Shown here: piece after piece, positions 1 through 24,179 of the stretch
How the letters are laid out: each line of letters begins with the position of its first letter
Numbering within the stretch: position 1 is the stretch's first letter
Origin: a candidate division CSSED10-310 bacterium
GTDB taxonomy: Bacteria; CSSED10-310
Assembly: GCA_016931515.1 (NCBI GenBank)
Contig: JAFGEQ010000019.1
Span: 160,700 to 224,699, forward strand
Length of the DNA stretch: 64,000 bases
Reading direction: 5' to 3'
Notes under the pieces: generated by a model
Seen by the model: the letters and a program-made list of their open reading frames with translations, nothing else
Database searches by the model: none
Told to the model about the DNA's origin: nothing
Translations under genes and position numbers: made by a program

Positions 1-1166
1 AACTCGATTTATCGCTGATCCGGGATTTGAAAGAGGAGCAGCAGTCTTTACGGCAGAAATCAGACGAAATCAGGCGGGATTGGCGAATGGAGATGGTCGA
101 CCAACCGGTAATGGTTGGTGTTGATGATGTATCTCAGGTTGTCAGCCAGTGGACGGGGGTCCCATTACGGAGGCTTCAGGAATCCGAATCTCAGAAATTG
201 CTGCAGATGGAGGAGGATATCCATCGACGGATTATTGCTCAGGATGAAGCAATCGGAGCGGTTGTCAGAGCCATCAGACGATCCCGATCGGGCTTAAAAG
301 ACCACACGAAGCCGATTGGATCATTCATCTTCCTCGGACCGACAGGCGTCGGGAAGACGGAACTCGCGCGAGCACTTGCGGAGAACCTATTTGGGGATGA
401 AAAGGCCATGATTTCCATTGATATGTCGGAGTTTATGGAGAAGCACTCTGTATCCCGCCTTGTGGGTTCTCCTCCTGGATATGTCGGATATGGGGAAGGC
501 GGACAGTTGACAGAAAAAGTCAGACGGCGACCGTATTCGGTTGTACTGCTGGATGAGATTGAAAAGGCAAGTCCGGAAATTTTCAATATTCTGCTTCAGG
601 TGATGGAGGAAGGTCACCTGACAGATGGCATGGGGCGGCAAGTCGACTTCCGGAATTGTATTTTGATTATGACCTCCAACATCGGAGCCAAATTTATACG
701 AACTGGCACGATGCTTGGATTCTCTCCGGATCAGGAAGCCGATCGGCGCTCCTATAATAAGATGAAGGAAACTGTATTGCAGGAGATGAAAACGACATTC
801 AGTCCTGAATTTTTAAACCGGGTGGATGAGATCGTTGTTTTTCATCAATTGACCCGTGATCATATCCGGGAAATCATGGATTTGAATTTGTCCCGCCTGA
901 ACAAGCAGCTCCAGGAAATTGGTCTCGAGATGGAGGTTACCCCAGCTGCGCGTGACTGGCTGGTGGAGAAGAGTTTTCAGCCTGCATATGGCGCTCGCCC
1001 CGTTAAACGTACGATCCGCCGGTATATCGAGAATCCGCTGTCGGAGGAGTTATTGAAACATCGCGAGGGTATGAAAGATACCAGTGTGAAAATATCCCTG
1101 ATGAAGAACCAACTGAAATTCAGTATCGAAATCGGAAATCAGTGTTTCGTTGTGACAGGTAGCTGA
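1..1166 (+). CDS. Clp/Hsp100 AAA+ ATPase (ClpC/ClpB family), C-terminal part; 5' end lies outside the window
   Basis: Walker A motif GPTGVGKTE and the conserved D2-domain block SVSRLVGSPPGYVGY...LLDEIEKA...ILIMTSN. The ORF is open to the window start. Confidence 0.85.
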   Translation, partial: LDLSLIRDLKEEQQSLRQKSDEIRRDWRMEMVDQPVMVGVDDVSQVVSQWTGVPLRRLQESESQKLLQMEEDIHRRIIAQDEAIGAVVRAIRRSRSGLKDHTKPIGSFIFLGPTGVGKTELARALAENLFGDEKAMISIDMSEFMEKHSVSRLVGSPPGYVGYGEGGQLTEKVRRRPYSVVLLDEIEKASPEIFNILLQVMEEGHLTDGMGRQVDFRNCILIMTSNIGAKFIRTGTMLGFSPDQEADRRSYNKMKETVLQEMKTTFSPEFLNRVDEIVVFHQLTRDHIREIMDLNLSRLNKQLQEIGLEMEVTPAARDWLVEKSFQPAYGARPVKRTIRRYIENPLSEELLKHREGMKDTSVKISLMKNQLKFSIEIGNQCFVVTGS

Positions 1167-1262: not shown

Positions 1263-3641
1263 TTGAAGTATTTTGCTGAAATAAAACGATTTCTAAGCTT
1301 TATGATCGTGCTGGTCGGCATCGCTTCAGTGGCTGTCTATGCCGATTCGACAACTCCCAACTTCATCCAGGATATCTCCATTCAGGGGAATGTGACGACG
1401 AGCCTTGAAACAATGAATTATCTGATCAAGGTGAAAAAAGGCGCCAGACTTGATCCGAAGTTTGTTCGCAGAGACATCGAAACACTCTATGCATCAGGTC
1501 TTTTTGACGATGTTCGTGTGGATGTTGAAACTGTTGAAGATGGGTATCGCCTGATTTACGTGGTAAAGGAACGCCCGATGATAACCGATGTAGTGATTAC
1601 GGGCGCCAGAGAAATCGGTCTAAATACTTTGCGGGAGGAACTCACCGTATCGTCCGGCGACAGGTATGACCCGGTGAAAGTGCGTGAGAGTACGACTAAG
1701 CTGGAGGAAAAATATCGTCAGAAAGGATATCATTTCGTTGTTGTTACGCCGCGTCTTACGGGGTCTCAGCCAGGTATGGCATCATTGATTTTCGATGTAG
1801 ATGAAGGGACAAAACTAAAGATACGAGATATCACTATCAATGGTAACGATCACATCAATACGGGTACCCGGCTCTGGGGATTAAAATCTCAATTCAAGAA
1901 CAATCAGGAATGGTGGTGGTTTTCTTTCATTTCAGACGCCGGAATCTATCAGGAGCAAATGCTGACAGAAGATCTCCGCGCCATCGAAAAATACTACAAG
2001 GATCGGGGTTATCTCCGGGTCGCTGTCAGCGAGCCGAGAATAACGTTAAATCGACCTGAAGATGCTGGAAAATCAGCGACATTGAGCATTGCCATCGACA
2101 TCGATGAAGGGGATGTGTATACCTTGGAGAATATCGATATCGAGGTCAGTGATCCGGAGATCATTCCGAAAGAAGTGGTGCAAAAGGTTGTCCATTCGGT
2201 TCGATTGGAAAGCTATCAGAAGTATTTTGGCGGATCCGCTTTTTTTGGAGCAGGCCCACGCTTTGAAAAAGGCAGAAGATACTCCCTCGCGCTTGAAGAT
2301 GAGGTAGTAAAAAGCCTGAGTGATCTGTATGGTTCGATAGGTTATATTTACGTATTTATCGATCCGGTCAAGGTTGTCAATGATTCAGCCCATACACTCG
2401 ATATCACTTTTAAAATCATCGAAGGCAAACAGGCATTCCTACACCGCCTTGAGTTCGTTGGTAACTATCGTACAAAAGACAGGGTCCTTCGCCGCAATTT
2501 CGCGATACCCGAAGGGGAGATTTTCAACATCTCTCTGATAAAATCATCAATCTCACGCATTCAGTATCTGGCATATATTGATGAAGTTGTACCTGATATC
2601 CAACCACAGGTAGACTCGTCTCAGGTCGATGTTATGATCTCTCTGGCGGATAACCGTCAGACTGAAGTGCAACTTTCAGGTGGTTACTCCGGATACAACA
2701 AGCTCTATGGCACTTTGGGTTTATCCGAGCACAATCTCTTCGGCAGGGGTCAGGAGCTCAGTGTATCAGCGACATCCGGCAGCCGGAGTGAAACATTTCG
2801 CTTTTCATTTTCGGATGAGTGGATCATGGATCGGCCTTATTACGGCTCGATATCTGTCTGGAATTCACGGGAGCGATATGATTACTCGAACCAGCGAAAA
2901 CTGGGTGGGAGTTTGTTTACTGGTCGGGCGCTTGGCAGGTATTTTTCGACGCGCCTGGGATATACGCTGGAACGAAACAAAGTGTTTGATATTGCTGATA
3001 ATGCCGATGAGTCGGTTAAAGAACTGGAAGGAATCCAGATTACGTCAAGTCTGACTCATATGTGGATTTTTAACAGTCTAAATAATCGTCTTGACCCAAC
3101 AGATGGTTTTTACAGTTCTGTGTCATTTGAAATTGCCGGCGGATTTCTTGGGGGAGACAACGATTTTTACAAAACCGCCCTTTCCATGTCCAATTATTGG
3201 GAACTTCCCCGAAAACTGGTTTTTTCACTTCAGGGAAAAGTCAGTTACGCGGAGGGACTTCGTGGAAAAAAACTGCCGTTTTACGAAAGATATCGTCTTG
3301 GAGGACCGCAATCCATCAGAGGATATTCGGACTACAGCGTCGGTCCGGTCGGTGAGGATGGCGACAATCTGGGCGGTAACAAATCGATGCAGGTTTCTGC
3401 TGAGCTTCAGATACCGATTGCTCAGCCCCTGAAACTTGTGTTTTTTGTTGATGCCGGGGATACATGGGCAGCCGATGATAAGATGGATATCCGCACTTTA
3501 CGGCCCAGCACGGGATTTGAAGTCCGTTTCTTTATGCCGGGATTCGGGATACCGCTGCGCTTTATCTGGGGATATAATCTGGATCCTTATGAAAACGAAA
3601 ATAAAAACGATTTCCAATTTACAATGGGACGTTCATTCTAA
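1263..3641 (+). CDS. bamA: Outer membrane protein assembly factor BamA (Omp85/D15); likely TTG start
   Basis: 792 aa with a signal peptide, POTRA-like repeats and a C-terminal Omp85 barrel ending in an aromatic residue (...FTMGRSF). It sits directly upstream of skp-lpxD-lpxA. Confidence 0.85.
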   Translation: MKYFAEIKRFLSFMIVLVGIASVAVYADSTTPNFIQDISIQGNVTTSLETMNYLIKVKKGARLDPKFVRRDIETLYASGLFDDVRVDVETVEDGYRLIYVVKERPMITDVVITGAREIGLNTLREELTVSSGDRYDPVKVRESTTKLEEKYRQKGYHFVVVTPRLTGSQPGMASLIFDVDEGTKLKIRDITINGNDHINTGTRLWGLKSQFKNNQEWWWFSFISDAGIYQEQMLTEDLRAIEKYYKDRGYLRVAVSEPRITLNRPEDAGKSATLSIAIDIDEGDVYTLENIDIEVSDPEIIPKEVVQKVVHSVRLESYQKYFGGSAFFGAGPRFEKGRRYSLALEDEVVKSLSDLYGSIGYIYVFIDPVKVVNDSAHTLDITFKIIEGKQAFLHRLEFVGNYRTKDRVLRRNFAIPEGEIFNISLIKSSISRIQYLAYIDEVVPDIQPQVDSSQVDVMISLADNRQTEVQLSGGYSGYNKLYGTLGLSEHNLFGRGQELSVSATSGSRSETFRFSFSDEWIMDRPYYGSISVWNSRERYDYSNQRKLGGSLFTGRALGRYFSTRLGYTLERNKVFDIADNADESVKELEGIQITSSLTHMWIFNSLNNRLDPTDGFYSSVSFEIAGGFLGGDNDFYKTALSMSNYWELPRKLVFSLQGKVSYAEGLRGKKLPFYERYRLGGPQSIRGYSDYSVGPVGEDGDNLGGNKSMQVSAELQIPIAQPLKLVFFVDAGDTWAADDKMDIRTLRPSTGFEVRFFMPGFGIPLRFIWGYNLDPYENENKNDFQFTMGRSF

Positions 3642-4260: not shown

Positions 4261-5370
4261 ATGAGTAGTCAAAAACCACCTGAATCCTTGACCCTGTCAG
4301 CTCTTGCTGAATGGCTTAATGCCGAGTTGACGGGGGAGGGTCCGGATCTACTCATAACAGGTATGGGAACTTTGGATTGTGCGAATTCAACGGATATTTC
4401 TTTTCTGAGCAATATGAAATATCGGCACCTGTTGGCTAAAACCAAAGCTTGTGCTGTACTGGTTCCTATTGATTTCGAAGAAAAAACTTCTTGTCGATTG
4501 ATAAAAGTCCGGGATGCCTATCTGGCTGTGGCCCGGTTGACGGCACTCTTCTATCCTCCTGTCCTGCCATCGAAAGGCATTCATCCATCTGCAATCATCA
4601 GTGATGATGCGATGATAGCTGATGATGTATGTATCAATGCCTTTGCTGTTGTAGAGTGCGGTGCCAGGATCGGAGCAAATACGACCCTCTTTCCCGGAGT
4701 TTATGTCGGTCGTGATACGACGATCGGGAATAACTGCATCCTCTATCCAAACGTAACGGTGTATCACGGCGTTACTATTGGTGATAATGTGATTGTTCAC
4801 GGAGGAGCAGTATTGGGCTCCGATGGGTTCGGATATGCTAAAGATGGGACTCGGTATTTCAAGGTTCCACAAATTGGAAGTCTGGTGATTAGCGATGATG
4901 TGGAAATCGGTGCCAATACAACCATTGATAGAGGCAGTCTCGGAGCGACTGTCGTTGCCCGTGGTGTTAAACTGGATAACCTTGTTCATCTGGCCCACAA
5001 TGTCAAAGTCGGCGACGATGTTGCCATCGCTGCCCAAAGCGGGATTGCGGGGAGCAGCGCAATCGGGCACCGCACGATAATGGGGGGTCAGTCAGGGATT
5101 AGCGGTCACGTCAAAGTGGGCGATGATGTAATCATGACAGCCCGTTCGGCTGCTCTAAAAGATATCCCTGACGGTTCGATGATATCGGGTTTCCCTCCAA
5201 TGCCACATCGCGAATGGAAGCGCAACCAGGTTGCCCTCAGAAACATTGAGAAACTCGAGAATACAGTTAAAAACCTGTCTGAAATTGTGAACCGACTCGA
5301 AAAGAGAATTGAAGAGATTGATCATCCTGGAAAGGAGAATTCAGGTGATTGCGAAAACCGCAATAATTGA
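4261..5370 (+). CDS. lpxD: UDP-3-O-(3-hydroxyacyl)glucosamine N-acyltransferase
   Basis: 369 aa with left-handed beta-helix hexapeptide repeats (IGDNVIVHGGAVLG..., IGANTTIDRGS...) and the LpxD N-terminal domain. Confidence 0.85.
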   Translation: MSSQKPPESLTLSALAEWLNAELTGEGPDLLITGMGTLDCANSTDISFLSNMKYRHLLAKTKACAVLVPIDFEEKTSCRLIKVRDAYLAVARLTALFYPPVLPSKGIHPSAIISDDAMIADDVCINAFAVVECGARIGANTTLFPGVYVGRDTTIGNNCILYPNVTVYHGVTIGDNVIVHGGAVLGSDGFGYAKDGTRYFKVPQIGSLVISDDVEIGANTTIDRGSLGATVVARGVKLDNLVHLAHNVKVGDDVAIAAQSGIAGSSAIGHRTIMGGQSGISGHVKVGDDVIMTARSAALKDIPDGSMISGFPPMPHREWKRNQVALRNIEKLENTVKNLSEIVNRLEKRIEEIDHPGKENSGDCENRNN

Positions 5371-6115
5371 TCCAGGCGCTAAAATAGCTGAAGATGTTAC
5401 GATTGGGCATTACTCGATTGTTGGTCCGGAGGTTGAAATCGGTCCGGGTTGTGAAATCGGTTACCACACCGTATTGGAAGGTCCAATGAAAATAGGTGCT
5501 CGGAACCGGATCTTTCATCATGCATATGTCGGTGGGATGCCTCAGGATATATCCTTCCAGGGTGAGAGAAGCGTGGTTGAAATTGGAGATGATAATGTTA
5601 TTCGTGAGTATGTAACGGTTCATCGCGGAACAATGAAGCAGAATTGTGTGACTCGAATCGGCAACCATAATTTGATTATGGCATATGCTCATATTGCGCA
5701 TGATTGCCAGATAGGAAATAACTGCATTATTGCCAACGCCGTCAATATGGCAGGTCATGTCATCGTGGAAGATTTTGCTGCTCTTGGCGGGATGGTGGCT
5801 ATTCACCAGTTTGTCAGAATAGGGAAATACTCTTTCATTGGAGGTTTTACAGCCATCACCCAGGATGTTCTTCCATTCAGTCTGATTGCAGGTGAACGGG
5901 GTACGCTTCGCGGTGTGAATAAAGTGGGGCTCCAGCGCAGGGGCTTCGATGCAGCCCAGCGAGGAAAAATCCATAAGGCAATGCGCTATATCATGAACCG
6001 TGAATTTCTCACCTCCACAGCCATAGAAAAAATACTGGAAGATTTTGGTGATGATCCCGATATTCTGGAGATCGTGAATTTTATCAGGAGTTCTGAACGG
6101 GGTGTTACGCTCTGA
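5345..6115 (+). CDS. lpxA: Acyl-ACP--UDP-GlcNAc O-acyltransferase
   Basis: Hexapeptide repeats plus the LpxA C-terminal helical domain. The preferred start is GTG at 5345, preceded by GGAGA; the ORF-track start at 5309 is probably an upstream extension overlapping lpxD. Confidence 0.8.
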   Translation: MIAKTAIIDPGAKIAEDVTIGHYSIVGPEVEIGPGCEIGYHTVLEGPMKIGARNRIFHHAYVGGMPQDISFQGERSVVEIGDDNVIREYVTVHRGTMKQNCVTRIGNHNLIMAYAHIAHDCQIGNNCIIANAVNMAGHVIVEDFAALGGMVAIHQFVRIGKYSFIGGFTAITQDVLPFSLIAGERGTLRGVNKVGLQRRGFDAAQRGKIHKAMRYIMNREFLTSTAIEKILEDFGDDPDILEIVNFIRSSERGVTL

Positions 6116-6128
6116 TATGCTATTACCG

Positions 6129-7058
6129 TTATTTAACGGATTCTCTCTCTAACCCCTTACGAACATCTCTCCCTAAAAATAATATCTCGGGATCATTCGC
6201 AGTACCTCTAACCGTCACAGGTATATACATGTCTTCAGAGAAGGGTTGAGTATCGCTGATCAAGTGTATTCTGACATCCAGATCAAGCTTCGAATAGTCA
6301 GCGGGAATTTTCTGTTGAATCCGTCCGAGGATTCGAAGGATTGTATCCGGTGAATTTAAGCGGACATCATCGAATTGGATTTGATCATAGTTAAGCGTAC
6401 ATCGGGCTGAGAGAGAGTTAAATTCAGGGATATCAAACCCGGATACCATGTTCTGGGGGAAATCGAGATAAGTCTTTTCAACGATTAAATCGATTGGGCC
6501 TTCATAGCTGAAAGTCCGGGAAAAGTCTGACTTCAGCCTGGCAGTGCCGCTGGAAATACCGGTTTTGAGATAGAGACTCCGGTAATCGACCGAGAGAAGA
6601 GAAAGGTTGATCGCGTCCCATTGCAGATTGACATTCAGAACGGCATTTTCTTTCCTGATCGGAGACTCAAGGGATCCGGAAAATGTGCCATCATAAGCTT
6701 TTCCCGAGAATTGGAGGGATGAAATTCCTTCGAATAAACGTGTTGGTGCGATCCGGATGGACAGGTAGTCAGCGGATAAAAATGTTTTCCGATCGGACGT
6801 GTCTTGGGGCGATTGACCCATTGTTGTATCCGGAGTCTGTTGTACCGTTAACTGCTTTAGAGTTATGCTTCCCATCAGATTCATCTGCACGTCTGAGTAT
6901 TTGATGGCAATACCTGTTCGTTCCTCGATCTGACCGGTCAGATGTCTTACAAGGTATTCGGCCGGGTTGAATATCCACATCAATAGGTAGAAAAAGATAA
7001 TCGGAAGAACAATCCAACTGATTATTTTCCTTGAAATATAGCGGATGACGCGTTTCAC
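6129..7058 (-). CDS. Hypothetical membrane-anchored protein (N-terminal TM; GspN/AsmA-like?)
   Basis: 309 aa with a single N-terminal TM helix. It overlaps the glgA stop by 4 nt, suggesting translational coupling. No motif I can recognise. Confidence 0.5.
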   Translation of the reverse strand: MKRVIRYISRKIISWIVLPIIFFYLLMWIFNPAEYLVRHLTGQIEERTGIAIKYSDVQMNLMGSITLKQLTVQQTPDTTMGQSPQDTSDRKTFLSADYLSIRIAPTRLFEGISSLQFSGKAYDGTFSGSLESPIRKENAVLNVNLQWDAINLSLLSVDYRSLYLKTGISSGTARLKSDFSRTFSYEGPIDLIVEKTYLDFPQNMVSGFDIPEFNSLSARCTLNYDQIQFDDVRLNSPDTILRILGRIQQKIPADYSKLDLDVRIHLISDTQPFSEDMYIPVTVRGTANDPEILFLGRDVRKGLERESVK

Positions 7059-8524
7059 TCAGTCGCGTCCTGTTGCTGAAGCTTTTGATAGAGTTCCAGA
7101 TAACCTGTCGCCGAGCGTCTCCATGAGAAGTCCTGGGCCATTGCATCCCTCATAATTGCCCTCCACGTCTCCGGTTGTGCATATGCTGCCAACGCCCGGT
7201 CCAGAGTCGTCAGCAGGGATTCCGGCGTATAATTGTCAAACTTGAATCCGGTTCTCAAATCAGGATGATCCGGTTCGCAATCACAAACCGTGTCATCCAG
7301 TCCGCCCGTTCGATGAACGATAGGAATCGTTCCAAATCGGAGAGCATAGATCTGATTCAGCCCACATGGTTCGAATCTGGATGGTTTTAACAAAAAATCA
7401 GCACCTGCAATCATCCGCTGCGAGATATCCTGATCGAGATTGTGAATGAAAGCAAAATGACCGGGGTTCGTTTCGGCGAGATTAGTGAAAATATGGACAT
7501 AATTTCGATCACCAATCCCCTGAAGGATAACCCGAATACCTTTTTGAATCATCTCTGACAGACTGAATTCCAGCAGGTCCAATCCTTTCCGACTGTATAA
7601 AGGAGTTATCATTGCGAGGATCGGTCCATCTTCGGCGGCATCAAGTGATGATTCAGCGATGATTGCACGTTTGCAGACAGCCTTACCTGTCAGGTTGTCC
7701 GGAGAGTATTCAGCGGGGATGATTGGATTTCTGATAGGACTCCATCGAGTATAGTCAGCACCGTTGATGATTCCGTACAGTTTCTTTTGCATCGTCTGAA
7801 GAACGCCTTCGAGACCGCATCCGAACTCGGTTGTCTGTATTTCCCGGCAGTAACGCGGTGATACCGTGTTGATTGCATCCGAGTAAAGCAATCCCGCTTT
7901 TAACAGGTTGAGATCTCCGTAAAATTCGATCCCTTCCGACGTGAAAAACTCCCAGGGTAAACCGGTCAGATGCATATCGAATCGCCAGAACAAACCTTGG
8001 TACGCCAGATTGTGCACAGTAAAAAGGCTTTTAACATGCTCGAATGCCGGATGATTTTCCCTGAATAGTTTTAAATAGAGAGGTACCAGGCCGGTTTGCC
8101 AATCGTTGCAATGGATAATGGATGGTTTATCCGGGAGGTTGGGAAGCATCTCGATAACAGATCTGGCGAAGAAGATAAACCGCTCGGCATTGTCGGGATA
8201 GTCACCGCTGTCAGTTTTATATAATGATTCGCGATTAAAATAATCGGGTTGATCGACTAGATAGACGGGGAGTTGATCCAGGAAAGTGCGATATAGATCT
8301 GCGTGTTTATAACGATCACCAATGGGAATGGAAACGCGGGTGGCAATTCTGTCCTGTTTGTAACGATCGGGAATTAAACTGTAACGAGGTATTATTAGAG
8401 ACGCATGAATGCCCAGTTCAAGCAAGGCTTTGGGCAGAGCGGAAACCACGTCTCCCATATAGGATGTACGGGCAAGAGGCGTGGCTTCAGATGCGGCAAC
8501 TAAAATATGCAAAGGATGATTCAA
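7055..8524 (-). CDS. glgA: Glycogen/starch synthase (GT5, ADP-glucose type); TTG start
   Basis: 489 aa. N-terminus HILVAASEATPLARTSYMGDVVSALPKAL corresponds to the KTGGL region, and the typical GlgA C-terminal blocks are present (PSRFEPCGLNQIYALRFGTIPIVHRTGGLDDTV). Confidence 0.8.
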   Translation of the reverse strand: MNHPLHILVAASEATPLARTSYMGDVVSALPKALLELGIHASLIIPRYSLIPDRYKQDRIATRVSIPIGDRYKHADLYRTFLDQLPVYLVDQPDYFNRESLYKTDSGDYPDNAERFIFFARSVIEMLPNLPDKPSIIHCNDWQTGLVPLYLKLFRENHPAFEHVKSLFTVHNLAYQGLFWRFDMHLTGLPWEFFTSEGIEFYGDLNLLKAGLLYSDAINTVSPRYCREIQTTEFGCGLEGVLQTMQKKLYGIINGADYTRWSPIRNPIIPAEYSPDNLTGKAVCKRAIIAESSLDAAEDGPILAMITPLYSRKGLDLLEFSLSEMIQKGIRVILQGIGDRNYVHIFTNLAETNPGHFAFIHNLDQDISQRMIAGADFLLKPSRFEPCGLNQIYALRFGTIPIVHRTGGLDDTVCDCEPDHPDLRTGFKFDNYTPESLLTTLDRALAAYAQPETWRAIMRDAMAQDFSWRRSATGYLELYQKLQQQDATE

Positions 8525-8631
8525 TGCTGATCCCTACCGGTTTGCGACGCGAGTCGCATGGTACGAAGGCTCAACCAAGTTGTCAAGCCGGGGGGTGTAC
8601 CTTACAATATCAGCAGGAGGTGGACGGCATC

Positions 8632-9021
8632 ATGGAGAATACTAACAACAAGGCTTTACGGGGTCCCATATGTTGCATTGTGATGGTCGGTCTGCTGCTG
8701 ATAACGGGGTGTGCCTGTCATCATCCCAGAACACACGAGGATCTGATACGTTATGGCGTGACGCTTGCCGAGAATGGGTACTGGAATGAAGCCGGAATGC
8801 AGTGGCGCATGGTGCTGAATGAAGATCCGAACAATGTTGCTGCTCTCAATAACCTGGGTATAGCAGCGGAAGTTCTGGACAGTATTGACACGGCATCCCG
8901 TTTTCTGAACAAGGCGCAACACTTGAGACCTGATGATAAACAGATCAGAAAGAATATTAAATCCCTTCAGCAGAGATTGTCAGAAAAGGGAAGCGGAGCC
9001 GGTCATGAAGAAGACAAATAA
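8632..9021 (+). CDS. TPR-repeat lipoprotein
   Basis: Lipobox LITGCA after a hydrophobic segment, then TPR-like repeats (ALNNLGIAAEV...). The start is an internal Met of the listed ORF, chosen on the RBS AGGAGG. Confidence 0.6.
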   Translation: MENTNNKALRGPICCIVMVGLLLITGCACHHPRTHEDLIRYGVTLAENGYWNEAGMQWRMVLNEDPNNVAALNNLGIAAEVLDSIDTASRFLNKAQHLRPDDKQIRKNIKSLQQRLSEKGSGAGHEEDK

Positions 9022-9706
9022 CAGATTGTTTGTTGTGTCGATTTGTTGCCTGCCAATCATAATGTTGTTTTTTTGCTTGATGATCACCGGGTGTGCTTCA
9101 TATAAAAAGATACCAATCATATATCGGATGTCACCTGTTTTAACCGACCTTGGTTCACGCTCATTAGAAATAGGTACTTTTTATCAGAAAAGCAGCGGAT
9201 TTCAGGCGGTGACGGATACAATTCGTATTTTACAGCGGAAATTGGAGAAGGAGAAAGTCTTCCGGGACATCCATTATACTCTGGACGTCAAAACAATACC
9301 TGACGAATCAACAACCATTCAGGAAATGATGGACACGCTGGCCGCAACTGACTGGACGTCGATGTCTCAAGATGTTGATCTCCTGCTGACCGGCGCTGTT
9401 ATATATGTCGCCCGGGATAGATCGGGATACGATTCCGAATGGCAGTTGAATCAATATGGATACAGGGTTCCTAAAAAAGTCTACAAGGATCGCCTTTCCT
9501 TCGAACTGGAGCTGGGTTTATTGCTTGTTGAGCCTGGAAGCGGAACCGTTATTATTCGGGAAGTCTACGAAGATAAAGGGTTGGCCGAAGGAGCAGCGGA
9601 TGAGATCGCTGTATTTTACGAACTCATTGAAAAACAACTCAAGAAATTTCTTGATAACCTTCAGGGAAAAGAAATCAGGAGCAAACAATATCTGCTGTAC
9701 CGATGA
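9005..9706 (+). CDS. Hypothetical lipoprotein
   Basis: MKKTNNRLFVVSICCLPIIMLFFCLMITGCAS signal/lipobox. ATGA overlap with the previous gene. Confidence 0.55.
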   Translation: MKKTNNRLFVVSICCLPIIMLFFCLMITGCASYKKIPIIYRMSPVLTDLGSRSLEIGTFYQKSSGFQAVTDTIRILQRKLEKEKVFRDIHYTLDVKTIPDESTTIQEMMDTLAATDWTSMSQDVDLLLTGAVIYVARDRSGYDSEWQLNQYGYRVPKKVYKDRLSFELELGLLLVEPGSGTVIIREVYEDKGLAEGAADEIAVFYELIEKQLKKFLDNLQGKEIRSKQYLLYR

Positions 9707-9725: not shown

Positions 9726-12590
9726 ATGAGAATAATCAATAGGTTGAGTATTATCGCTTTAGTCATCGGATATGCTTGTGTTAATCTCCCATCAGCCGGT
9801 GCATTCGGAAAGAACAAAGTCACATATTCCAGATTCCATTGGCAGGTTCATCAAACAGAGCATTTCGAGTATTATTATTATCCTGAAGAAGCAGAACTTA
9901 TCCCCACGGTCATCGGCTATTTCGAGACTGCATATGCCAGAATATCAGACGATCTGGGAACAGAGTTAACCGGGCATATCCCGGTTATTCTATATCGCAC
10001 TTATTCTGATTTTCAGCAAACCAATGTTCTGATGGAGTTCATACCGGGAGGTGTTGGGGGTTTTTCAGAGCCTTTAAAACGCCGTATTGTCATACCGCTT
10101 CAGAATTCTATGAGTGACCTGGAGTCACTGATCAATCATGAATTAGTGCATTCCTTCCAATTCGAGATCTTCTTCCAGAATCGTATTAATCGGATTGCTC
10201 CTATCCCGGACTGGGTAATGGAAGGATCTGCCGAACATTTCGCTGCTGACTGGGATGCGGTAGGCCGGATGGTTCTGCGCGATGCAGTTATCAGTGGATA
10301 TCTACCTGGCCTTGACCGCCTGGACGATTTTAACACTCTTCCATCGGCATATATCGGGTATAAAATTTCGCAATCCGCCGTTGATTATCTTCAGAGGGAA
10401 TATGGCAACGAAAAATTGAGGGCTTTCCTTTGGGAGATAAGGAAAACATTAAAATCAACGAATTACTTTAAAAAAGTGGTCGAGGAAATTTTTGGGATAT
10501 CGCTCGAGGAGTTATCCGCCAGATGGCAGAATGATCTGCGACGTCGGATTATAGAAATTGAACGCAGGCGGGAGAGTATCATCCAATTTGAGAAGGTGGT
10601 TTCGCCGTCTCAGGAGTATTACCGCAGGATGTCGCCTGTTTTTGGAGTCGGTAATGAAGTCATTCATTTTATGGAAGTAAACAACGACGGATTTAACGTT
10701 TACACAGGGGCGATTCGTGATCCGGAGAAAAAACCACTCAATCAGTGTTTGACTTGTGATTTGAGTATGCGGAAGTACCGGCAGGTTGTAACCGACGGAA
10801 GATCTCTCTCCTCGTGTCTTGACGATGGTCGACTCGTATTCATCGGTAAATATGAAAACAAAAACTACCTCCAGATAATTGATCCGGCAGTGGGGGGGAT
10901 GGTTCAAAGGGTTCTGATACCGGAAGATGCTCCGACATCACCCGCATTCAGTCCTGACGGCCGATATGTTGCTTATTCTGCATGGTCGGGCACGCAATCC
11001 GATATTTTTGTTTATGATCTCACCTTAGAGTCCAGCCGGAATATCACAAACGATTCCTTTGTCGATCGAACACCTTTCTGGTCACCTGACGGTTCATTCC
11101 TCGTTTATTCATCCGAACGGGATGGTCAGTTTGATCTCTATGTGGAAAATGTTGGATCCGGGTTCAAGCAGATTCTTCTGACTGCAGCGGGTGATGAAAT
11201 CACCCCGGCATGGTCTCCTGACGGTAAAAAGATAGTCTACATATCGGATCTCCAGGACGGCATCCTCGATCCATATATCATTGATCTTGAGACATCCAAT
11301 GTGCGAAGACTGGCAGCTCCGGTAACGGGTTGCATGACACCGTCATTCTCAATCGACAGTAAAAATGTTGTTCTCTCATATTTTTACAAAGGATCGGAGA
11401 GAATAGTGGTGATTCCCGCAGACCGGATCCCCGAGATACCGGAGGTAGGGAAAGATATCGAACCTCTCGGTGTCGGAGGTGAAAGTGATTACACAAAAAT
11501 GCGGGACGTCGAGCCGACGGGCGAATTTCCGAAATCGACGCAGGACTTGAATGCAGGCCCTGTCCGCTTCCACCTTGTTCCGGATTACGCCGTTGGAATG
11601 ATCAGCTACGGTACGGGTGGCGATTTTGTGTTTGAGGGAGGTCTGGTCGTATCGGATATTCTTGGCGATCACCGGATAGAACTGATCGGTCGAAAGCGCG
11701 ATAATGCCAATGGTCTTCTGGCTCAATATTTGTATTTACGGAACCGCATCGACTACGGCATCCTGTTCAGCCAGGACAGTGATTATTACTATGTCTATAA
11801 CCCGTTAATCGGATACTACCAGAAGGTCAATTGGGATGAATACTGGGGCGATGTGGTTATGGAATACCCTTTTTCCACCTACTATCGTGCGGAGCTTCAT
11901 GCGGGGTATCAGCATCTTGAGTATGAATCTGGAATCTCGGCATATAATGGTCTGGGTGAAAAATTCGCATATATAGAACCGGCGTTCGCAGGTGATACCG
12001 TTCGCTACAAATGGATGATGGGATACCCGGAAATTTATAAAGGATGGCGGTTTAGATTGAATACCCGGATTCCGGTAGCTGTCAGCGATGACCTGGAAAA
12101 CTACTGGAACACTTATTTCGACTTCAGAGAATATATGCCTTTGTCCGAGAGAGTTGTTTTCGCTGCTCGTCAATGGGGCGCTTTCTCTCATGGCGAGGAT
12201 CCCAGATATTTTGGAATCGGTGGTTTTGGAACCATCAGAGGATATGAATATAAGCGCCTGGTTGGAAGCCGGGTCGTTATAGCGAATGCCGAACTTCGTT
12301 TCCCGATTCTTGACTCAATCAGATTCCCTGGGGGTATAGCCTTTTATGGATTCAGGGCCAAAATGTTCATCGATGCTGCTGCTGTCTGGTCGGAAGACGA
12401 TAATTACAAATCGAAATTTGATGATCCGGACACATCGGAACGTGAAGGGTCGCTGGCCGCTTCGTACGGTCTTGGGATTAACTTTTGGCTGATCGGTGTG
12501 GAATGGCATTTCGAATGGGCTCGTAAAACGGATTTTCAGAACTCATCAGGCGATTGGTTCTATGAATGGTCTATTCGACGCAGTTTCTAA
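9726..12590 (+). CDS. Large outer-membrane protein: N-terminal HExxH zinc-peptidase-like domain + TolB-like WD40/beta-propeller repeats + C-terminal Omp85/surface-antigen-like beta-barrel
   Basis: Signal peptide MRIINRLSIIALVIGYACVNLPSAGA. HELVHSFQ...EGSAEH gluzincin-like motif. Repeated SPDG(R/S/K)x(V/L)(A/V)Y(S/I)... propeller blades. C-terminus ...WSIRRSF is a typical beta-signal. RBS GAGGAG before the ATG at 9726. Confidence 0.65.
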   Translation: MRIINRLSIIALVIGYACVNLPSAGAFGKNKVTYSRFHWQVHQTEHFEYYYYPEEAELIPTVIGYFETAYARISDDLGTELTGHIPVILYRTYSDFQQTNVLMEFIPGGVGGFSEPLKRRIVIPLQNSMSDLESLINHELVHSFQFEIFFQNRINRIAPIPDWVMEGSAEHFAADWDAVGRMVLRDAVISGYLPGLDRLDDFNTLPSAYIGYKISQSAVDYLQREYGNEKLRAFLWEIRKTLKSTNYFKKVVEEIFGISLEELSARWQNDLRRRIIEIERRRESIIQFEKVVSPSQEYYRRMSPVFGVGNEVIHFMEVNNDGFNVYTGAIRDPEKKPLNQCLTCDLSMRKYRQVVTDGRSLSSCLDDGRLVFIGKYENKNYLQIIDPAVGGMVQRVLIPEDAPTSPAFSPDGRYVAYSAWSGTQSDIFVYDLTLESSRNITNDSFVDRTPFWSPDGSFLVYSSERDGQFDLYVENVGSGFKQILLTAAGDEITPAWSPDGKKIVYISDLQDGILDPYIIDLETSNVRRLAAPVTGCMTPSFSIDSKNVVLSYFYKGSERIVVIPADRIPEIPEVGKDIEPLGVGGESDYTKMRDVEPTGEFPKSTQDLNAGPVRFHLVPDYAVGMISYGTGGDFVFEGGLVVSDILGDHRIELIGRKRDNANGLLAQYLYLRNRIDYGILFSQDSDYYYVYNPLIGYYQKVNWDEYWGDVVMEYPFSTYYRAELHAGYQHLEYESGISAYNGLGEKFAYIEPAFAGDTVRYKWMMGYPEIYKGWRFRLNTRIPVAVSDDLENYWNTYFDFREYMPLSERVVFAARQWGAFSHGEDPRYFGIGGFGTIRGYEYKRLVGSRVVIANAELRFPILDSIRFPGGIAFYGFRAKMFIDAAAVWSEDDNYKSKFDDPDTSEREGSLAASYGLGINFWLIGVEWHFEWARKTDFQNSSGDWFYEWSIRRSF

Positions 12591-20810: not shown

Positions 20811-22844
20811 TTGAGTGTCAGTGATAAGGAACAACATCACGTGAGAAATAATGTCAGAGATGCTGCATTTCTGGGCATGATAGCGCTCGTTCTCAGATTG
20901 GGTCATTTTTTCTTAATCGGAAACGATCCCGTTGCCGATATTCTGGTGCTCGATAGCTGGTCATACGATCGGATTGCGCGATTAATAATCTCGGGTGAAA
21001 TGCCGAATAAAGTGTATTTTCAGGCACCCTTCTATCCCTATTTTCTTGCTGCTTTTTATAAAATATTTAACGGTAGTATTGATTCCGTTCGTATTGCTCA
21101 AATCATTCTCGATACTATCTCAGCTGTTGCTGTTTTTCGAATTACACGTATCTTGTTCGGATGCCGTTCTGCATGGATTGCCGGGGTCTTTATGGCTGTG
21201 TATCCGGTATCTATATTTCAAAGTGGTCTGATACTGAAGACAACGTTGAATATCTTTTTTGCCGCATCGATGATCTGGTTGATTATCGAGAAACCCCGTT
21301 TCCCAGATAGCATTCGCATGATAATGCTGGGTCTCATAAGCGGATGGGCGGCTGCAACACAGGGATCCGTACTACTGCAACTGCCTATTCTTCCGATTTG
21401 GATTATTGTCGATAGTGGATGGCGATGTCTGCCGACATGGATCAAACGAATCGCGCTGTTTGGTCTGGGTTTGAGTATTGGTATCGGACCGTTCACATTA
21501 AGGAACTACCTTGTCAGCGGAAGATTCGTTCTTCTGACATCGCAGGGAGGAGCGAATTTTTATCTCGGTAACAGTCCATATTCCGATGGAACAAGCAAAC
21601 GACCGCCCAGGGTGAGGATGACGCCTGAATATGAAGAGGAGGATTTTCATCGGGAAGCAGAATATGCTGCAGGACAATCGCTCACACCTGAAGATGCGGG
21701 TCGGTACTGGCGGGATGAGGCTCTTAAATGGATGCGCGACCATCCTGGAGATGCATTGAAACTGGAGGCCAGGAAATTCGCCTTGTTTTGGAACCGGGTC
21801 GAAATACCCGACAACTATGATTTTGATTTTTACCGGCGCTATTCCTGGTTGATTCGGTATCCAAGATATCCATTCTGGATCATCGGCTCATTAGGATTGG
21901 CAGGAATGATATTTCTCACGGCATCATGGAGGAAAACCTGGTTCCTGTATGCATGGTCATCATCCTATTGTTTTATCTGGGTGATGTTCCATATTTATTC
22001 CAGGTACAGGTTACCGATGATTATCTTTCTGGCACCATTTGCCGCTGAATTCATCAGCAAAGTGATCGATTTGACTAAAACCGGTCGGTATACATCACTG
22101 GCGGGTCATTACCTGCTATGGATCGGCATTGTACTGTTCCAGGCAATTCCACTGACGGCCTATTCATCTGCTCAGCCCCTGTTCAATCTTGGTTCCGGTC
22201 TGACGCGTCTTGGCCGGCTGGATGAAGCCAGGACAGCTTATCTTGAGGCATTGGATGCATTGCCGGGCTATGAACCCGCAATGGTTAATCTGGGGAAATT
22301 GGCATGGTCTCAGGGTAATCCTGCTGAAGCGATTTTATGGTGGGAAAAAGCAATTGATACCAATCCAAAAGCCGTCGAAGCCCATTCCAATCTGGGTAGT
22401 TTGCTGGCCATGCAGGGAAAGATGATGGAAGCGAAAGGCCATTTCCTCGTCGCAACTCAAGAACAACCGTATTACTTCCTGGGGTGGCTGCATCTGGCTC
22501 AAACAGAAGAGTCTCTTCAAGAATATGAGAAGGCATTGGAAGCCTATAAGAAGGCCATTGATTTAAAACCTCATGATGTACAGGCTTTGTACGGCAGGGC
22601 AAAGGTGCTTGAAAAAATCGGTGGTGGGGAATCAGCACTGGCAGCATGGCGCATTTATTTAGACGAAGCGGACGACATGTTGGAAGAAAGAATCTACATT
22701 GACGAGGCAAAAACAAGAGTTGAATTGCTTTCGCATGAGATTCCTGTGGCCGGCGTGGAATCAATGGAAGGGGGATTAGCTCATTCGGATGAAACGTCGG
22801 ATCAGCGGGGACCGGCCGAACATCCATCGGATCGTATGCAGTAA
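20811..22844 (+). CDS. Polytopic membrane protein, GT-C fold (ArnT/PMT_2, GT39/83-like), with C-terminal TPR repeats
   Basis: Multi-TM N-terminal about 450 aa, then TPR repeats (AYLEALDALPGYEPAMVNLGKLAWSQGNPAEAILWWEKAIDTNPKAVEAHSNLG...). Confidence 0.65.
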   Translation: MSVSDKEQHHVRNNVRDAAFLGMIALVLRLGHFFLIGNDPVADILVLDSWSYDRIARLIISGEMPNKVYFQAPFYPYFLAAFYKIFNGSIDSVRIAQIILDTISAVAVFRITRILFGCRSAWIAGVFMAVYPVSIFQSGLILKTTLNIFFAASMIWLIIEKPRFPDSIRMIMLGLISGWAAATQGSVLLQLPILPIWIIVDSGWRCLPTWIKRIALFGLGLSIGIGPFTLRNYLVSGRFVLLTSQGGANFYLGNSPYSDGTSKRPPRVRMTPEYEEEDFHREAEYAAGQSLTPEDAGRYWRDEALKWMRDHPGDALKLEARKFALFWNRVEIPDNYDFDFYRRYSWLIRYPRYPFWIIGSLGLAGMIFLTASWRKTWFLYAWSSSYCFIWVMFHIYSRYRLPMIIFLAPFAAEFISKVIDLTKTGRYTSLAGHYLLWIGIVLFQAIPLTAYSSAQPLFNLGSGLTRLGRLDEARTAYLEALDALPGYEPAMVNLGKLAWSQGNPAEAILWWEKAIDTNPKAVEAHSNLGSLLAMQGKMMEAKGHFLVATQEQPYYFLGWLHLAQTEESLQEYEKALEAYKKAIDLKPHDVQALYGRAKVLEKIGGGESALAAWRIYLDEADDMLEERIYIDEAKTRVELLSHEIPVAGVESMEGGLAHSDETSDQRGPAEHPSDRMQ

Positions 22845-24179
22845 ACCTCCAGTGCGGATGTTGTTCATGATCGAAGCATGATAGTGCCTTGAAACGGCTT
22901 TCAATTTTTGAAAACTGTTTTCATTGACCAGTGAATCCGAATGGTCCGGTGCGCGAAGGGGATTTCTGACCCATTCGATCAAAGGCTTAGTAGTGGCAGA
23001 GACTGAAAAATGTGAATCGCAGTAAACGAATGCCCGTTCCGCATTCGATTTGATAAATTCCGGATTATGTATGGCTTCCGTAATCACACTAACAAGGCCC
23101 TCTGTATCCTCAGGCTGAAACGTTGATCCCAGGGCTTCCTGGCGAATAACTCGAGACAATTCGCATAATTCCGACGTGACAATCGGTAGTCTCATCTGCA
23201 TCCAATCCATCAGTCGATTCCGGCTCCCAAGAATGCCTTCGTAAGAAAACAGATCGATATTTATTCCGATATCTGATTCCTGGACACAGGCTGGAACCTC
23301 GTTAAACGGTATCCACCCACGCATAACAAAGCGATTCCGGAATTCAGACCCTTCGATTCGATTAAGAAAATGCTTGTATGTCAGTTCATCATGCGAGGCA
23401 ATTTCCCCGCCGGTACTGACAAAATAAACTTGCGGGAATCGCTGGAACACGCGTTCCAAGGCTTCAAACAACGTATTCACATCAGTCCACGTATTGTATC
23501 CGCCACTCCACAAAATGATAAATGCATCCCGAGGTACAAGGACACCTCGAAGCACCGGTTCGGACGGAGGGTCCAACGGCAGATTCTCATTCATTGAACA
23601 GGGTATAACCCTCGTAAACTGATAACCGGTTGTGGCACGGTTGAGTCGAAACCGTGTGCCGAGTTCGCCAATTGTTGCATATGATTGCGGATTTGAGACA
23701 ACTGACAGCACATCCGCTCTGTCGAGGATGGATTCTTCCTGTCTCCATAATTGCGAGATGTAGTAATTATCTCTGAATACCTGTGATTTGGTTTGAGCTT
23801 CAGCCATGACATGTCCAAAAAGATCTGCCCAGATAGGGCGGTCGGTTATCAGTTGTGTGGCCATATAAGATGGAAAGATTGTCGCTCCGACAATGCAATC
23901 CGGCTCGAAGTTGTCATGAATCCTTTGGAGCCAGGCGCTGTTTTCGAATATTTCCTGTCGGACCGAGTAGTAAATGAGATTGCCATGTTCTTCTGCCATG
24001 GCTGGTTCTGTCGTAACGTTTTTATAAGCAGCGAGGTGGCGACTGCAGATCAGGCAGAGTCGGTTCCCGTCCTCCAGCAGAGGGCGAACGAATTGCCAGG
24101 TTCGTTTACCAGGCGCCAGTGTACACGTATCGTTTTCAGTAGGCAGCGGACTCAATCCCAACACCAGAACACGTTTCAT
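22776..24179 (-). CDS. Glycosyltransferase, GT4-like (GT-B) domain; paralogue of the N-terminal half of the next gene
   Basis: N-terminus MKRVLVLGLSPLPTEN... parallels MTRLLVFGFAPLPFEN... in the next gene. Shared WSGGYNTWTD motif. Preferred start is the Met giving an ATGA overlap with the upstream gene. Confidence 0.65.
   Translation of the reverse strand: MKRVLVLGLSPLPTENDTCTLAPGKRTWQFVRPLLEDGNRLCLICSRHLAAYKNVTTEPAMAEEHGNLIYYSVRQEIFENSAWLQRIHDNFEPDCIVGATIFPSYMATQLITDRPIWADLFGHVMAEAQTKSQVFRDNYYISQLWRQEESILDRADVLSVVSNPQSYATIGELGTRFRLNRATTGYQFTRVIPCSMNENLPLDPPSEPVLRGVLVPRDAFIILWSGGYNTWTDVNTLFEALERVFQRFPQVYFVSTGGEIASHDELTYKHFLNRIEGSEFRNRFVMRGWIPFNEVPACVQESDIGINIDLFSYEGILGSRNRLMDWMQMRLPIVTSELCELSRVIRQEALGSTFQPEDTEGLVSVITEAIHNPEFIKSNAERAFVYCDSHFSVSATTKPLIEWVRNPLRAPDHSDSLVNENSFQKLKAVSRHYHASIMNNIRTGGLLHTIRWMFGRSPLIRRFIRMS

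Follow-up and report, generated by a model that had tools for sequence, protein, structure and literature searches.

A zinc peptidase–propeller–Omp85 barrel protein of the WD40-like Omp85 subfamily, encoded with two small lipoproteins in a candidate division CSSED10-310 bacterium

In this work, we have analysed a stretch of 64,000 nucleotides (hereafter the window) from a candidate division CSSED10-310 bacterium, in which three consecutive genes encode two small lipoproteins and a large predicted outer-membrane protein (Table 1). Gene 3 is translated without interruption, has a GAGGAG ribosome-binding site 6 nt upstream of its ATG, and its 954-aa product occurs as an identical sequence in public databases (P0001). 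An earlier ATG at position 9456, which would give a 1044-aa ORF, was rejected because it overlaps gene 2 in another frame and because the homologues and the public annotation begin at the signal peptide. This signal peptide is followed by a mature N-terminus (FGKNK) that is near-invariant among relatives, and these features of the sequence show a product that is predicted to be exported by the Sec route. Pfam scanning placed Peptidase_MA_2 (residues 69–271, 44.7 bits versus a cut-off of 32.4), PD40 (78.4 versus 20.9) and Omp85 (PF01103, residues 772–919, 55.7 versus 24) on the product, all above the curated cut-offs, and the AlphaFold2 model, which is confident (pLDDT 88, pTM 0.85), agrees with these three assignments. 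The initial annotation had described a signal peptide, a peptidase, a propeller and an Omp85-like barrel on a single protein, and our results confirm this three-part predicted outer-membrane protein; its pTM also suggests that the domains have a defined arrangement in the model. A gene-fusion artefact was discarded, since the same full-length architecture is found in more than 1000 independent cluster representatives. No second paralogue was found within the window.

Table 1. Positions of the genes, domains and motifs in the window (position 1 is its first nucleotide; a slash marks the cleavage site).
Feature	Position	Strand	Extent	Basis or remark
Promoter-like site TTGTCA-17-TACAAT	8580..8608	+		24 nt 5' of gene 1; 10/12 consensus matches
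Gene 1, small TPR lipoprotein, lipobox LLITG/C	8632..9021	+	129 aa	weak TPR matches, homologues at distant loci
Gene 2, lipoprotein of TolB-N/LptE/PelC/FlgT-M fold, lipobox MITG/C	9005..9706	+	233 aa	AlphaFold2, Foldseek, weak Pfam
Gene 3, peptidase–propeller–Omp85 protein	9726..12590	+	954 aa	stop codon included
Signal peptide (...PSAGA/FGKNK)	9726..9803	+	residues 1–26	read from sequence; AlphaFold2 helix 2–19
Gluzincin (clan MA, Peptidase_MA_2) catalytic domain	9804..10580	+	residues 27–285	Pfam, profile search, AlphaFold2
HELVH, two zinc-binding His and catalytic Glu	10137..10151	+	residues 138–142	conservation, AlphaFold2 helix
EGSAEH, E166 as third zinc ligand, within WxMEG motif	10221..10238	+	residues 166–171	conservation, collagenase alignment
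Six-bladed TolB-type (PD40) beta-propeller	10593..11417	+	residues 290–564	
Linker without regular secondary structure	11418..11576	+	residues 565–617	AlphaFold2: no helix or strand, pLDDT 82–93
16-stranded Omp85 barrel, C-terminal residue Phe	11577..12587	+	residues 618–954	

The two small lipoprotein genes that had been noticed upstream of gene 3 are indeed present, with the true starts and lipoboxes given in Table 1; the start of gene 2 overlaps the end of gene 1. The promoter-like site in front of gene 1, being a consensus match only, is weak evidence. Taken singly, the products of genes 1 and 2 gave nothing above threshold with Pfam or NCBIfam. The gene 1 product has weak matches to the TPR lipoproteins Tgl, PrsT and PilW, and homologues of it, most of which keep the lipobox, lie two genes upstream of a gene 3 relative in five distant loci, a copy being adjacent in 38 of 68 species-level genome loci. 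The assignment of gene 2, which belongs to a family of more than 1385 proteins, relied on family-wide scanning and structure prediction: 61 family members gave weak Pfam matches to FlgT_M (50), DUF3280 (46), LpoB (39) and LptE (23), and the AlphaFold2 model of the gene 2 product (pLDDT 90) matched HpaA, PelC, FlgT, CsgG, GNA1162 and LptE in Foldseek. A gene 2 copy adjoins the gene 3 relative in 37 of the 68 loci. In Thermoanaerobaculia the lipobox of the gene 2 homologue is replaced by an ordinary cleavable signal peptide, which implies a soluble periplasmic protein. The whole cassette, with the TPR lipoprotein first, the LptE/PelC/FlgT-fold lipoprotein second and the barrel protein last, recurs in 37/68 loci, and its flanks are unrelated across the five loci of relatives for which gene tables were examined. 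A metagenome-assembled genome of a Thermoanaerobaculum sp. is among the carriers of the cassette. Since about half of the relatives are encoded without the cassette, the partners are not obligatory.

The N-terminal domain of the gene 3 product carries the HELVH and EGSAEH motif pair that had been likened to gluzincins from the sequence, and this pair is near-universal among 110 relatives of 27–76% identity: H138 and E139 are kept in 109 of them, and H142, W163, E166, G167 and Y212 in all 110. In the AlphaFold2 model HExxH lies in helix 129–150 and E166 in the following helix, 162–172, and not in a transmembrane or β-strand context; as modelled, this is the canonical gluzincin arrangement. As a single sequence the domain found no meaningful match among PDB sequences, and a profile of 17 sequences was required to reach the M9 collagenases (7esi, E 2.4e-4) and an M1 aminopeptidase (3cia, E 0.019). 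In these matches HExxH and W..EG.AEY align with the M9/M1 catalytic motifs, and E166 with the collagenase motif SEGIAEY. The Pfam Peptidase_M9 model remained below threshold on the gene 3 product, and no match to G.MEN, the M1 exopeptidase motif (GxMEN), occurs anywhere in it. With H138, H142 and E166 all present, aligned with the M9/M1 sites and conserved, the sequence evidence shows a gluzincin domain that is catalytically complete in its predicted ligand set. The retention of HExxH...E and Y212 at such identities would reflect selection rather than chance, and because the zinc site is invariant the proteins of this subfamily are almost certainly active peptidases.

The second domain contains five blade-like (S/T)PxF/W-SxDG motifs (residues 303, 405, 449, 493 and 538), in keeping with the five or more TolB/WD40-like repeats first counted, and TolB is its best structural match. 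With the TolB model (TIGR02800), whose cut-off is 343 bits, the score was 115 bits, and the match was confined to model positions 157–353, that is, to the propeller. This likeness, together with the TolB-N-like superfamily fold of the gene 2 product, some relatives of which are named ‘TolB-like protein’ by certain sources, would suit a tether of the Tol-Pal kind, in which the complex links the outer membrane to the cell wall, its propeller holding on to a lipoprotein that is Pal-like or peptidoglycan-associated, while gene 2 supplies the missing TolB N-terminal-like domain, and no protein is degraded. Such a tether is, in our view, very improbable: the TIGR02800 score is far from the family cut-off, the invariant zinc site would be left without a role, neither gene 1 nor gene 2 product has an OmpA/Pal-like domain, and the top fold matches of gene 2 are HpaA, PelC, FlgT and LptE rather than the N-terminal domain of TolB itself. 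In the linker that follows the propeller, residues 580–602 are a clade-specific insertion (75–85% gaps in relatives). AlphaFold2 shows no beta-alpha-alpha-beta-beta unit in residues 565–617, and Pfam gave no POTRA match in the gene 3 product.

The C-terminal region, suspected to be an outer-membrane β-barrel from its ending WSIRRSF, is a 16-stranded member of the Omp85 superfamily (PF01103). Its loop 6 bears IRGY (residues 837–840, nt 12234–12245), of which R838 is kept in 110/110 relatives and G839 in 103/110, and FIDAA (residues 881–885) represents the (F/G)xDxG motif. Here D883 is shared by 109/110, and Ala takes the place of the final Gly of the motif, which 90/110 relatives have. Both motifs align with the BamA of the window itself. 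These lid-lock motifs, and a final strand that is short in the model (945–950) next to a longer first strand, as in BamA, could point to a factor for assembly or translocation of the BAM/TAM kind. In that case the working part would be the barrel, as a lateral-gate insertase or channel, with the propeller and the TPR lipoprotein replacing POTRA, BamB and BamD as scaffolds and the peptidase only trimming or clearing clients. The TPR lipoproteins BamD, PilW and Tgl do aid outer-membrane protein assembly (the gene 1 matches to such proteins being weak), and the subfamily described below has been likened to a BamA–BamB fusion in the survey of Heinz and Lithgow (PMC4104836). However, the lid-lock motifs are structural and occur also in non-insertase Omp85 proteins, and a canonical BamA, with its five POTRA domains, is already encoded in the genome. 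The zinc site is absolutely conserved, which suggests proteolysis as the core activity, and no evidence points to any client. We regard an assembly factor as improbable.

The initial annotation had also stressed the position of gene 3 next to bamA/skp/lpx. The genes bamA (1263–3641), whose product is the canonical BamA, its neighbour skp, and lpxD and lpxA do lie nearby in the window, but two opposite-strand genes (6129–8524) separate them from the cassette, and hence gene 3 is outside the bamA-skp-lpxD-lpxA operon. In four other lineages (two metagenome lineages with 54% and 35% identity, Thermoanaerobaculia and Poribacteria) the outer flanks are unrelated; the upstream lpxA...glgA synteny is kept only in the 54%-identity relative and is absent in the three more distant lineages. 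The proximity is thus lineage-specific synteny, neither an operon nor a conserved link, and a functional link to these genes was rejected on both grounds. Other loci have a different kind of neighbour: in 10 loci of Vicinamibacterales type the immediate upstream neighbour is a divergent ECF sigma factor, accompanied by a zf-HC2 anti-sigma factor where that gene was scanned, and an ECF sigma factor is found upstream of the cassette in two further loci (L003/L004). Such neighbours, absent from this window, may be counted as a link to envelope regulation.

By its domain order and the kinds of its structural matches, the gene 3 product is a member of the ‘WD40-like’ (WD40-Omp85) subfamily. Its architecture had seemed impossible to assign to a named family, but Heinz and Lithgow named the subfamily in 2014, when they distinguished ten within Omp85/TpsB (PMC4104836). 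For about 95 members, Table S3 of that survey lists the barrel match, the TolB match and the ‘best aminopeptidase hit’; the aminopeptidase-like N-terminal domain was already recorded in this supplement, while the main text treats the WD40 portion only. Compared with Tables S2 and S3, the gene 3 product has PD40/WD40-like repeats, which precede a PF01103 barrel and match TolB best in structure, and an aminopeptidase/collagenase-like N-terminus without POTRA that finds M9/M1 templates of the kinds listed in Table S3. PMC11358297 and PMC11116518 both restate the subfamily; papers of 2024 still term it uncharacterised, and one of them, on PlpD (PMC11116518), flags it as a target for study. Literature searches for an experimentally characterised member returned only the 2014 survey and passing mentions. 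With 2239 representatives at 50% identity (E <= 1e-30) and relatives in at least 584 species-level genomes, gene 3 is, within this window, an ordinary member of a large family.

We propose, with a probability of roughly 0.55, that these proteins form a predicted outer-membrane-anchored zinc peptidase complex that faces the periplasm and acts on envelope proteins. The barrel would anchor the enzyme in the outer membrane, with peptidase and propeller hanging into the periplasm, and the propeller may serve to bind substrates or to gate them, like the propellers of tricorn, DPP-IV and prolyl-oligopeptidase-type enzymes. As accessory subunits, the two small exported proteins may dock at the periplasmic face, in the manner of BamD/BamE on BamA, LptE on LptD and PelC on PelB. 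The targets of such a complex would be unfolded polypeptides of the envelope, which it would cleave at the inner face of the outer membrane so that outer-membrane proteins or lipoproteins are quality-controlled or processed, a role comparable to that of the soluble protease BepA, which works with BAM. To our knowledge, all characterised N-terminal extensions of Omp85 barrels are on the periplasmic side, and TolB-type propellers are periplasmic. By Foldseek, the gene 2 product shares its fold with outer-membrane lipoproteins that face the periplasm and bind to barrels or rings.

The initial annotation had offered a surface-exposed protease beside a periplasmic propeller, and on our analysis the latter appears to fit the evidence better. 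For a surface location, peptidase and propeller would be threaded out through or alongside the barrel in a type V-like self-secretion, to degrade extracellular proteins for nutrition or in interaction with other cells. We consider this unlikely, even though M9 collagenases, to which the catalytic domain bears a resemblance, are secreted, and the subfamily is common in proteolytic heterotrophs, often with several paralogues per genome (Rhodothermus, Salinibacter and Caldithrix in the list of PMC4104836), a multiplicity that fits nutrient-acquisition proteases as well as housekeeping quality control. The option was raised by Heinz and Lithgow for enzyme-Omp85 fusions by analogy with PlpD (PMC4104836), but this analogy has been overturned, since the enzyme domain of PlpD, the only such fusion tested, stays periplasmic, contrary to the older type Vd model (PMC11116518). 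In addition, the AlphaFold2 model has no POTRA and no autotransporter-like linker helix, some 540 residues of folded peptidase and propeller would have to cross unfolded without an energy source, and the partner proteins have periplasmic-type folds and signals. A 16-stranded barrel, moreover, has both termini in the periplasm.

The periplasm-facing peptidase complex could be extended, tentatively, to an undescribed outer-membrane machine in which the cassette proteins couple an Omp85 lateral gate or channel to proteolysis. In it, the barrel with its fused peptidase and propeller would be joined by a mini-TPR lipoprotein of BamD-like type and by a subunit resembling LptE/PelC. One example of its work might be to pull out misassembled outer-membrane proteins or lipoproteins and degrade them, and in some lineages an ECF envelope-stress sigma factor might control it. 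Outer-membrane biogenesis depends centrally on the Omp85 superfamily and, PlpD excepted, we know of no characterised member that does not insert or translocate proteins. If such a machine exists, degradation would be a third Omp85 activity beside insertion and translocation. The WD40-like subfamily ranks among the large, uncharacterised branches of Omp85, and to its 2014 catalogue we add the invariance of the zinc site and the finding that, throughout a large clade, two exported partners accompany the gene, one BamD-like and one LptE/PelC-like; the passages searched in PMC4104836 mention neither zinc-site conservation nor a cassette with two accessory exported proteins. Together, these additions yield a concrete candidate three-protein complex.

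How does this protein compare with known systems? With the WD40-like subfamily it shares the order of aminopeptidase-like domain, TolB-like PD40 propeller and Omp85 barrel without POTRA, structural matches of the same kinds (TolB, BamA/TamA, M1/M9 peptidases) and overlapping taxa (Calditrichia/Caldithrix, Gemmatimonadota), although its source, candidate division CSSED10-310, is outside the 2014 set. With the gluzincins of clan MA (M9 collagenases, M1 aminopeptidases, Pfam Peptidase_MA_2) it has in common HExxH on one helix, the third-ligand Glu in W..EG.A(E)Y on the next and a conserved Tyr downstream, and differs in its HExxH-x23-E spacing. Unlike TolB of the Tol-Pal system, the gene 3 polypeptide is missing the TolB N-terminal domain, and its propeller is fused to a peptidase and a barrel.

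The BAM complex likewise combines a propeller and a TPR lipoprotein in one system, and BamA shares the 16-stranded barrel, L6 (V/I)RG(Y/F), FxDxG and the C-terminal aromatic residue. The suggestion of a BamA/TamA-like paralogue nevertheless does not hold in the strict sense, as the gene 3 product lacks POTRA domains and reaches 42 bits with the BamA model (TIGR03303), whose cut-off is 297. In addition, BamB is eight-bladed, whereas the propeller here is six-bladed, TolB-type and covalently fused; BamD has about 225 mature residues, against about 105 in the gene 1 TPR lipoprotein; and BAM lacks the zinc peptidase that the gene 3 product carries. PlpD and the patatin-like Omp85 proteins (formerly ‘type Vd’) also place an N-terminal enzyme domain on a 16-stranded Omp85 barrel, but PlpD is a homodimeric patatin lipase with one POTRA and no propeller, while the gene 3 product, a metallopeptidase with a propeller, has neither the patatin nor the POTRA of the type Vd pattern (patatin, POTRA and barrel). 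Finally, as in the LptD–LptE and PelB–PelC pairs, a protein of LptE/PelC fold (gene 2) is encoded beside a presumed barrel, and PelB likewise combines TPR repeats with a barrel. In contrast to those pairs, the 16-stranded barrel is too small for a plug of LptE size, the interaction of the gene 2 product with the barrel is deduced from gene order only, and the presumed substrate is a polypeptide, not LPS or a polysaccharide.

The 954-aa protein carries an export signal, a predicted gluzincin site, a TolB-type propeller and an Omp85 barrel free of POTRA units, and its gene keeps a conserved order with the genes of two exported partners. A GAGGAG ribosome-binding site can be read directly 5' of its start codon, and the identical sequence is already on public record as a 'PD40 domain-containing protein' of candidate division CSSED10-310. 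The motifs quoted in the initial annotation were all found (HELVH 138-142, EGSAEH 166-171 and the C-terminal ...WSIRRSF), the blade-like repeats were counted as five (S/T)Px(F/W)SxDG motifs, and in the HMM search its three domain calls were each borne out above the curated Pfam cut-off: Peptidase_MA_2 (residues 69-271, 44.7 bits against 32.4), PD40 (78.4 against 20.9) and Omp85 (772-919, 55.7 against 24). Pfam hits precomputed on the protein's family include both tricorn propeller models.

Features of the protein, its gene and their surroundings
Feature	Position	Strand	Remark
clpB fragment, bamA, skp, lpxD, lpxA, in order	upstream of the 954-aa gene	+	
bamA	1263-3641	+	five POTRA domains
GspN-like gene	6129-7058	-	309 aa; no Pfam match; NCBIfam
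Glycogen synthase	7055-8524	-	
First partner	8632-9021	+	129-aa TPR protein; lipobox LLITG↓C
Second partner	9005-9706	+	233 aa; lipobox MITG↓C
954-aa gene	9726-12590	+	open across 954 codons
Mur ligase, then sucCD, then 2-oxoacid:ferredoxin oxidoreductase	downstream of the 954-aa gene	- (Mur ligase)	
Signal-peptide helix	residues 2-19		AlphaFold2 secondary structure
Mixed beta/alpha catalytic domain	residues about 31-285		AlphaFold2
HExxH helix; next helix, bearing E166	residues 129-150; 162-172		AlphaFold2
Propeller	residues 290-564		24 strands, six four-stranded blades; AlphaFold2
Linker	residues 565-617		no regular structure, no POTRA unit; AlphaFold2
Barrel	residues 618-950		16 strands; AlphaFold2
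Loop 6	residues 824-848		long, bears IRGY; AlphaFold2
H138, E139			kept in 109/110 relatives
H142, W163, E166, G167, Y212			kept in 110/110 relatives
R838			kept in 110/110 relatives
G839			kept in 103/110 relatives
D883			kept in 109/110 relatives
Aromatic C-terminal residue			110/110 relatives
ECF loci L053, L058, L063, L067, L070, L078, L079, L080, L081, L084	about 0-550 bp upstream of relative		

That this architecture could not be placed in a named family, as had been supposed, is wrong. Heinz & Lithgow 2014 (PMC4104836) recognize ten Omp85/TpsB subfamilies, one of them 'WD40-like' (WD40-Omp85), whose Pfam profiles combine PF01103 with between one and five PF07676 repeats (their Table S2); Table S3 gives Phyre2 matches of about 95 members to BamA/TamA barrels and TolB, and a 'best aminopeptidase hit' (1z5h, 4kxd, 3qnf or collagenases 4ar1/4ar9) at about 99% confidence, while the main-text passages discuss the propeller only and draw a comparison to a BamA-BamB fusion. 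In later papers, 'divergent WD40 and peptidase domains' are ascribed to one subfamily (PMC11358297), and the metalloprotease, WD40-like and patatin-like subfamilies 'have not been well characterized' (PMC11116518). The architecture is thus known and named. No functional study of any WD40-like member was found in the literature searched, and the passages searched make no mention of the invariant zinc site or of the conserved cassette described below, which may be noted elsewhere. Our protein, from candidate division CSSED10-310, adds a new member to a known subfamily, large and uncharacterised, with 2239 representatives at 50% identity (E <= 1e-30), most of which measure 920-1140 aa and align over their full length.

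Structural modelling with AlphaFold2, based on a 110-sequence alignment, returned a confident model (mean pLDDT 88, pTM 0.85) with a six-bladed propeller and a 16-stranded barrel, matching TolB structures (E about 1e-12) and BamA barrels (E about 1e-10) in Foldseek. A Tol-Pal-like tether, a role for which the TolB-type propeller might speak, we hold to be highly improbable; the NCBIfam TolB model gave only a partial match, over the propeller and far under its family cut-off. With the C-terminal half of the BamA barrel encoded in the same window, our barrel shares only 21% identity, even though the two signature motifs can be aligned, and so it is an ancient rather than a recent paralogue; the NCBIfam BamA model likewise matched the barrel only, far under its cut-off. 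This kinship could suggest primarily a BAM-like assembly factor; with the peptidase site intact, we regard that role as unlikely. An insertion of about 23 residues (580-602; 11463-11531) in the linker from propeller to barrel is peculiar to the CSSED10-310-like clade, 75-85% of relatives having a gap there; even so, it is modelled at pLDDT 82-87.

The profile of the N-terminal domain alone matches M9 collagenases (7esi, E 2.4e-4) and the M1 aminopeptidase 3cia (E 0.019). Since HExxH and W..EG.AEY line up with the motifs of these peptidases in the profile alignments, the role of third zinc ligand is assigned to E166, which makes the protein a predicted gluzincin with the spacing HExxH-x23-E. 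Judged from conservation among 110 relatives (27-76% identity), this intact site is under strong purifying selection. The predicted mature N-terminus FGKNK (residues 27-31, 9804-9818) is nearly invariant in the same relatives (G28 invariant; F27, N30 and K31 at 90% or more), despite a pLDDT below 50 for segment 16-30. Conserved yet unstructured, it could be a docking motif; TolB binds TolA through its N-terminus, and TPR proteins bind short peptides.

The two small upstream reading frames of the initial annotation are real lipoprotein genes, here given corrected starts. They overlap each other, a gap of 20 nt separates the second from the 954-aa gene, and a weak promoter-like consensus match lies 24 nt 5' of the first. 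Gene tables around relatives at 54%, 35%, 30% (Poribacteria) and 27% (Thermoanaerobaculia) identity showed in every case a TPR protein, a protein of about 200-230 aa without Pfam match and the relative, in that order; both partners could be aligned across these loci, the outer flanks were mutually unrelated, and the upstream lpxA...glgA synteny was retained only in the 54% relative. Thus the cassette is conserved and the bamA neighbourhood is not. The proximity to bamA, skp and lpx genes pointed out earlier therefore carries no functional weight, all the more as two opposite-strand genes part the bamA block from ours. With one genome scanned per species, relatives turned up in at least 584 genomes, of Acidobacteriota (including Thermoanaerobaculia, Vicinamibacterales, Holophagales and Aminicenantes), Poribacteria, WOR-3, Gemmatimonadota, Calditrichia and Eisenbacteria. 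Both partners were directly adjacent on the same strand in 37 of 68 fetched loci that reach 1.5 kb or more upstream; those lacking the cassette were mainly from Vicinamibacterales, WOR-3, Gemmatimonadota and Calditrichia.

In ten such Vicinamibacterales-type loci (table), a divergent ECF sigma-70 factor lies right upstream of the relative, next to a zf-HC2 anti-sigma factor in the two where the neighbouring gene was scanned as well, and in L003/L004, other loci around relatives, one lies at 2835-3458, upstream of the cassette. None stands beside the gene in our window. These neighbours suggest envelope-stress regulation of the relatives in those lineages, and their recurrence fits an envelope-stress role.

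The family of the second partner numbers more than 1385 proteins; a scan of 61 of them gave weak Pfam hits to FlgT_M (50), DUF3280 (46), LpoB (39) and LptE (23). Its AlphaFold2 model (pLDDT 90) matches HpaA, PelC, FlgT, CsgG, GNA1162 and LptE in Foldseek, and is predicted to have the TolB-N-like fold of outer-membrane lipoproteins found under barrels or rings. The CSSED10-310-like clade has a lipobox, and so does the only Poribacteria homologue looked at (L007), whereas Thermoanaerobaculia have an ordinary cleavable signal peptide with a signal peptidase I site (PLxAFA↓GV), so the protein is anchored differently between lineages and would be periplasmic either way. The first partner has two TPR repeats and, in most homologues, a lipobox; it weakly resembles TPR lipoproteins, among them Tgl, PilW and PrsT.

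Elsewhere in the window, the GspN-like frame (type II secretion, Leptospira type; 85 bits against 50) lies by itself between lpxA and glycogen synthase, its surroundings containing no further T2SS gene, and a 318-aa protein holds its position in L001, the locus of the 54% relative. lpxA directly follows lpxD (4261-6115, +) without the fabZ of the common order lpxD-fabZ-lpxA, and its true start is probably later than listed, given an overlap of about 60 nt with lpxD. Three large PMT_2/DUF2298 glycosyltransferase-C-type membrane proteins (20811-22844, 53233-56208 and 56269-58647, all +; one TPR-fused, one of 991 aa with a fused NHL six-bladed propeller, and one DUF2298 protein), with a GT1/GT2 glycosyltransferase block at 22776-27675, suggest extensive envelope glycosylation. 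Two long frames, 41187-43412 (-, 741 aa) and 50968-53106 (+, 712 aa), have no Pfam match at E <= 1e-4.

What is the role of this protein in vivo? A 16-stranded barrel has its two ends in the periplasm, where TolB-type propellers also lie and, in all characterised cases known to us, the N-terminal extensions of Omp85 proteins; with the signals and folds of the partners, this argues that peptidase and propeller face the periplasm. PlpD, the sole enzyme-Omp85 fusion known to have been tested, keeps its enzyme periplasmic, against an older secretion model (PMC11116518). Surface exposure of our protein seems improbable to us. We propose instead, with a probability of roughly 55%, a periplasm-facing peptidase with docked partners, whose most likely job would be to cut unfolded polypeptides of the envelope where the outer membrane faces inward. 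Within its subfamily the gene is an ordinary one; its invariant active site and two-partner cassette offer a concrete complex for testing. The peptidase would differ from M1 aminopeptidases, whose GxMEN motif was absent on scanning the protein. The propeller probably binds or filters substrates, as propellers do in tricorn protease, DPP-IV and prolyl oligopeptidases, and both partners probably attach to the barrel in the way that BamD/BamE, LptE and PelC attach to theirs.
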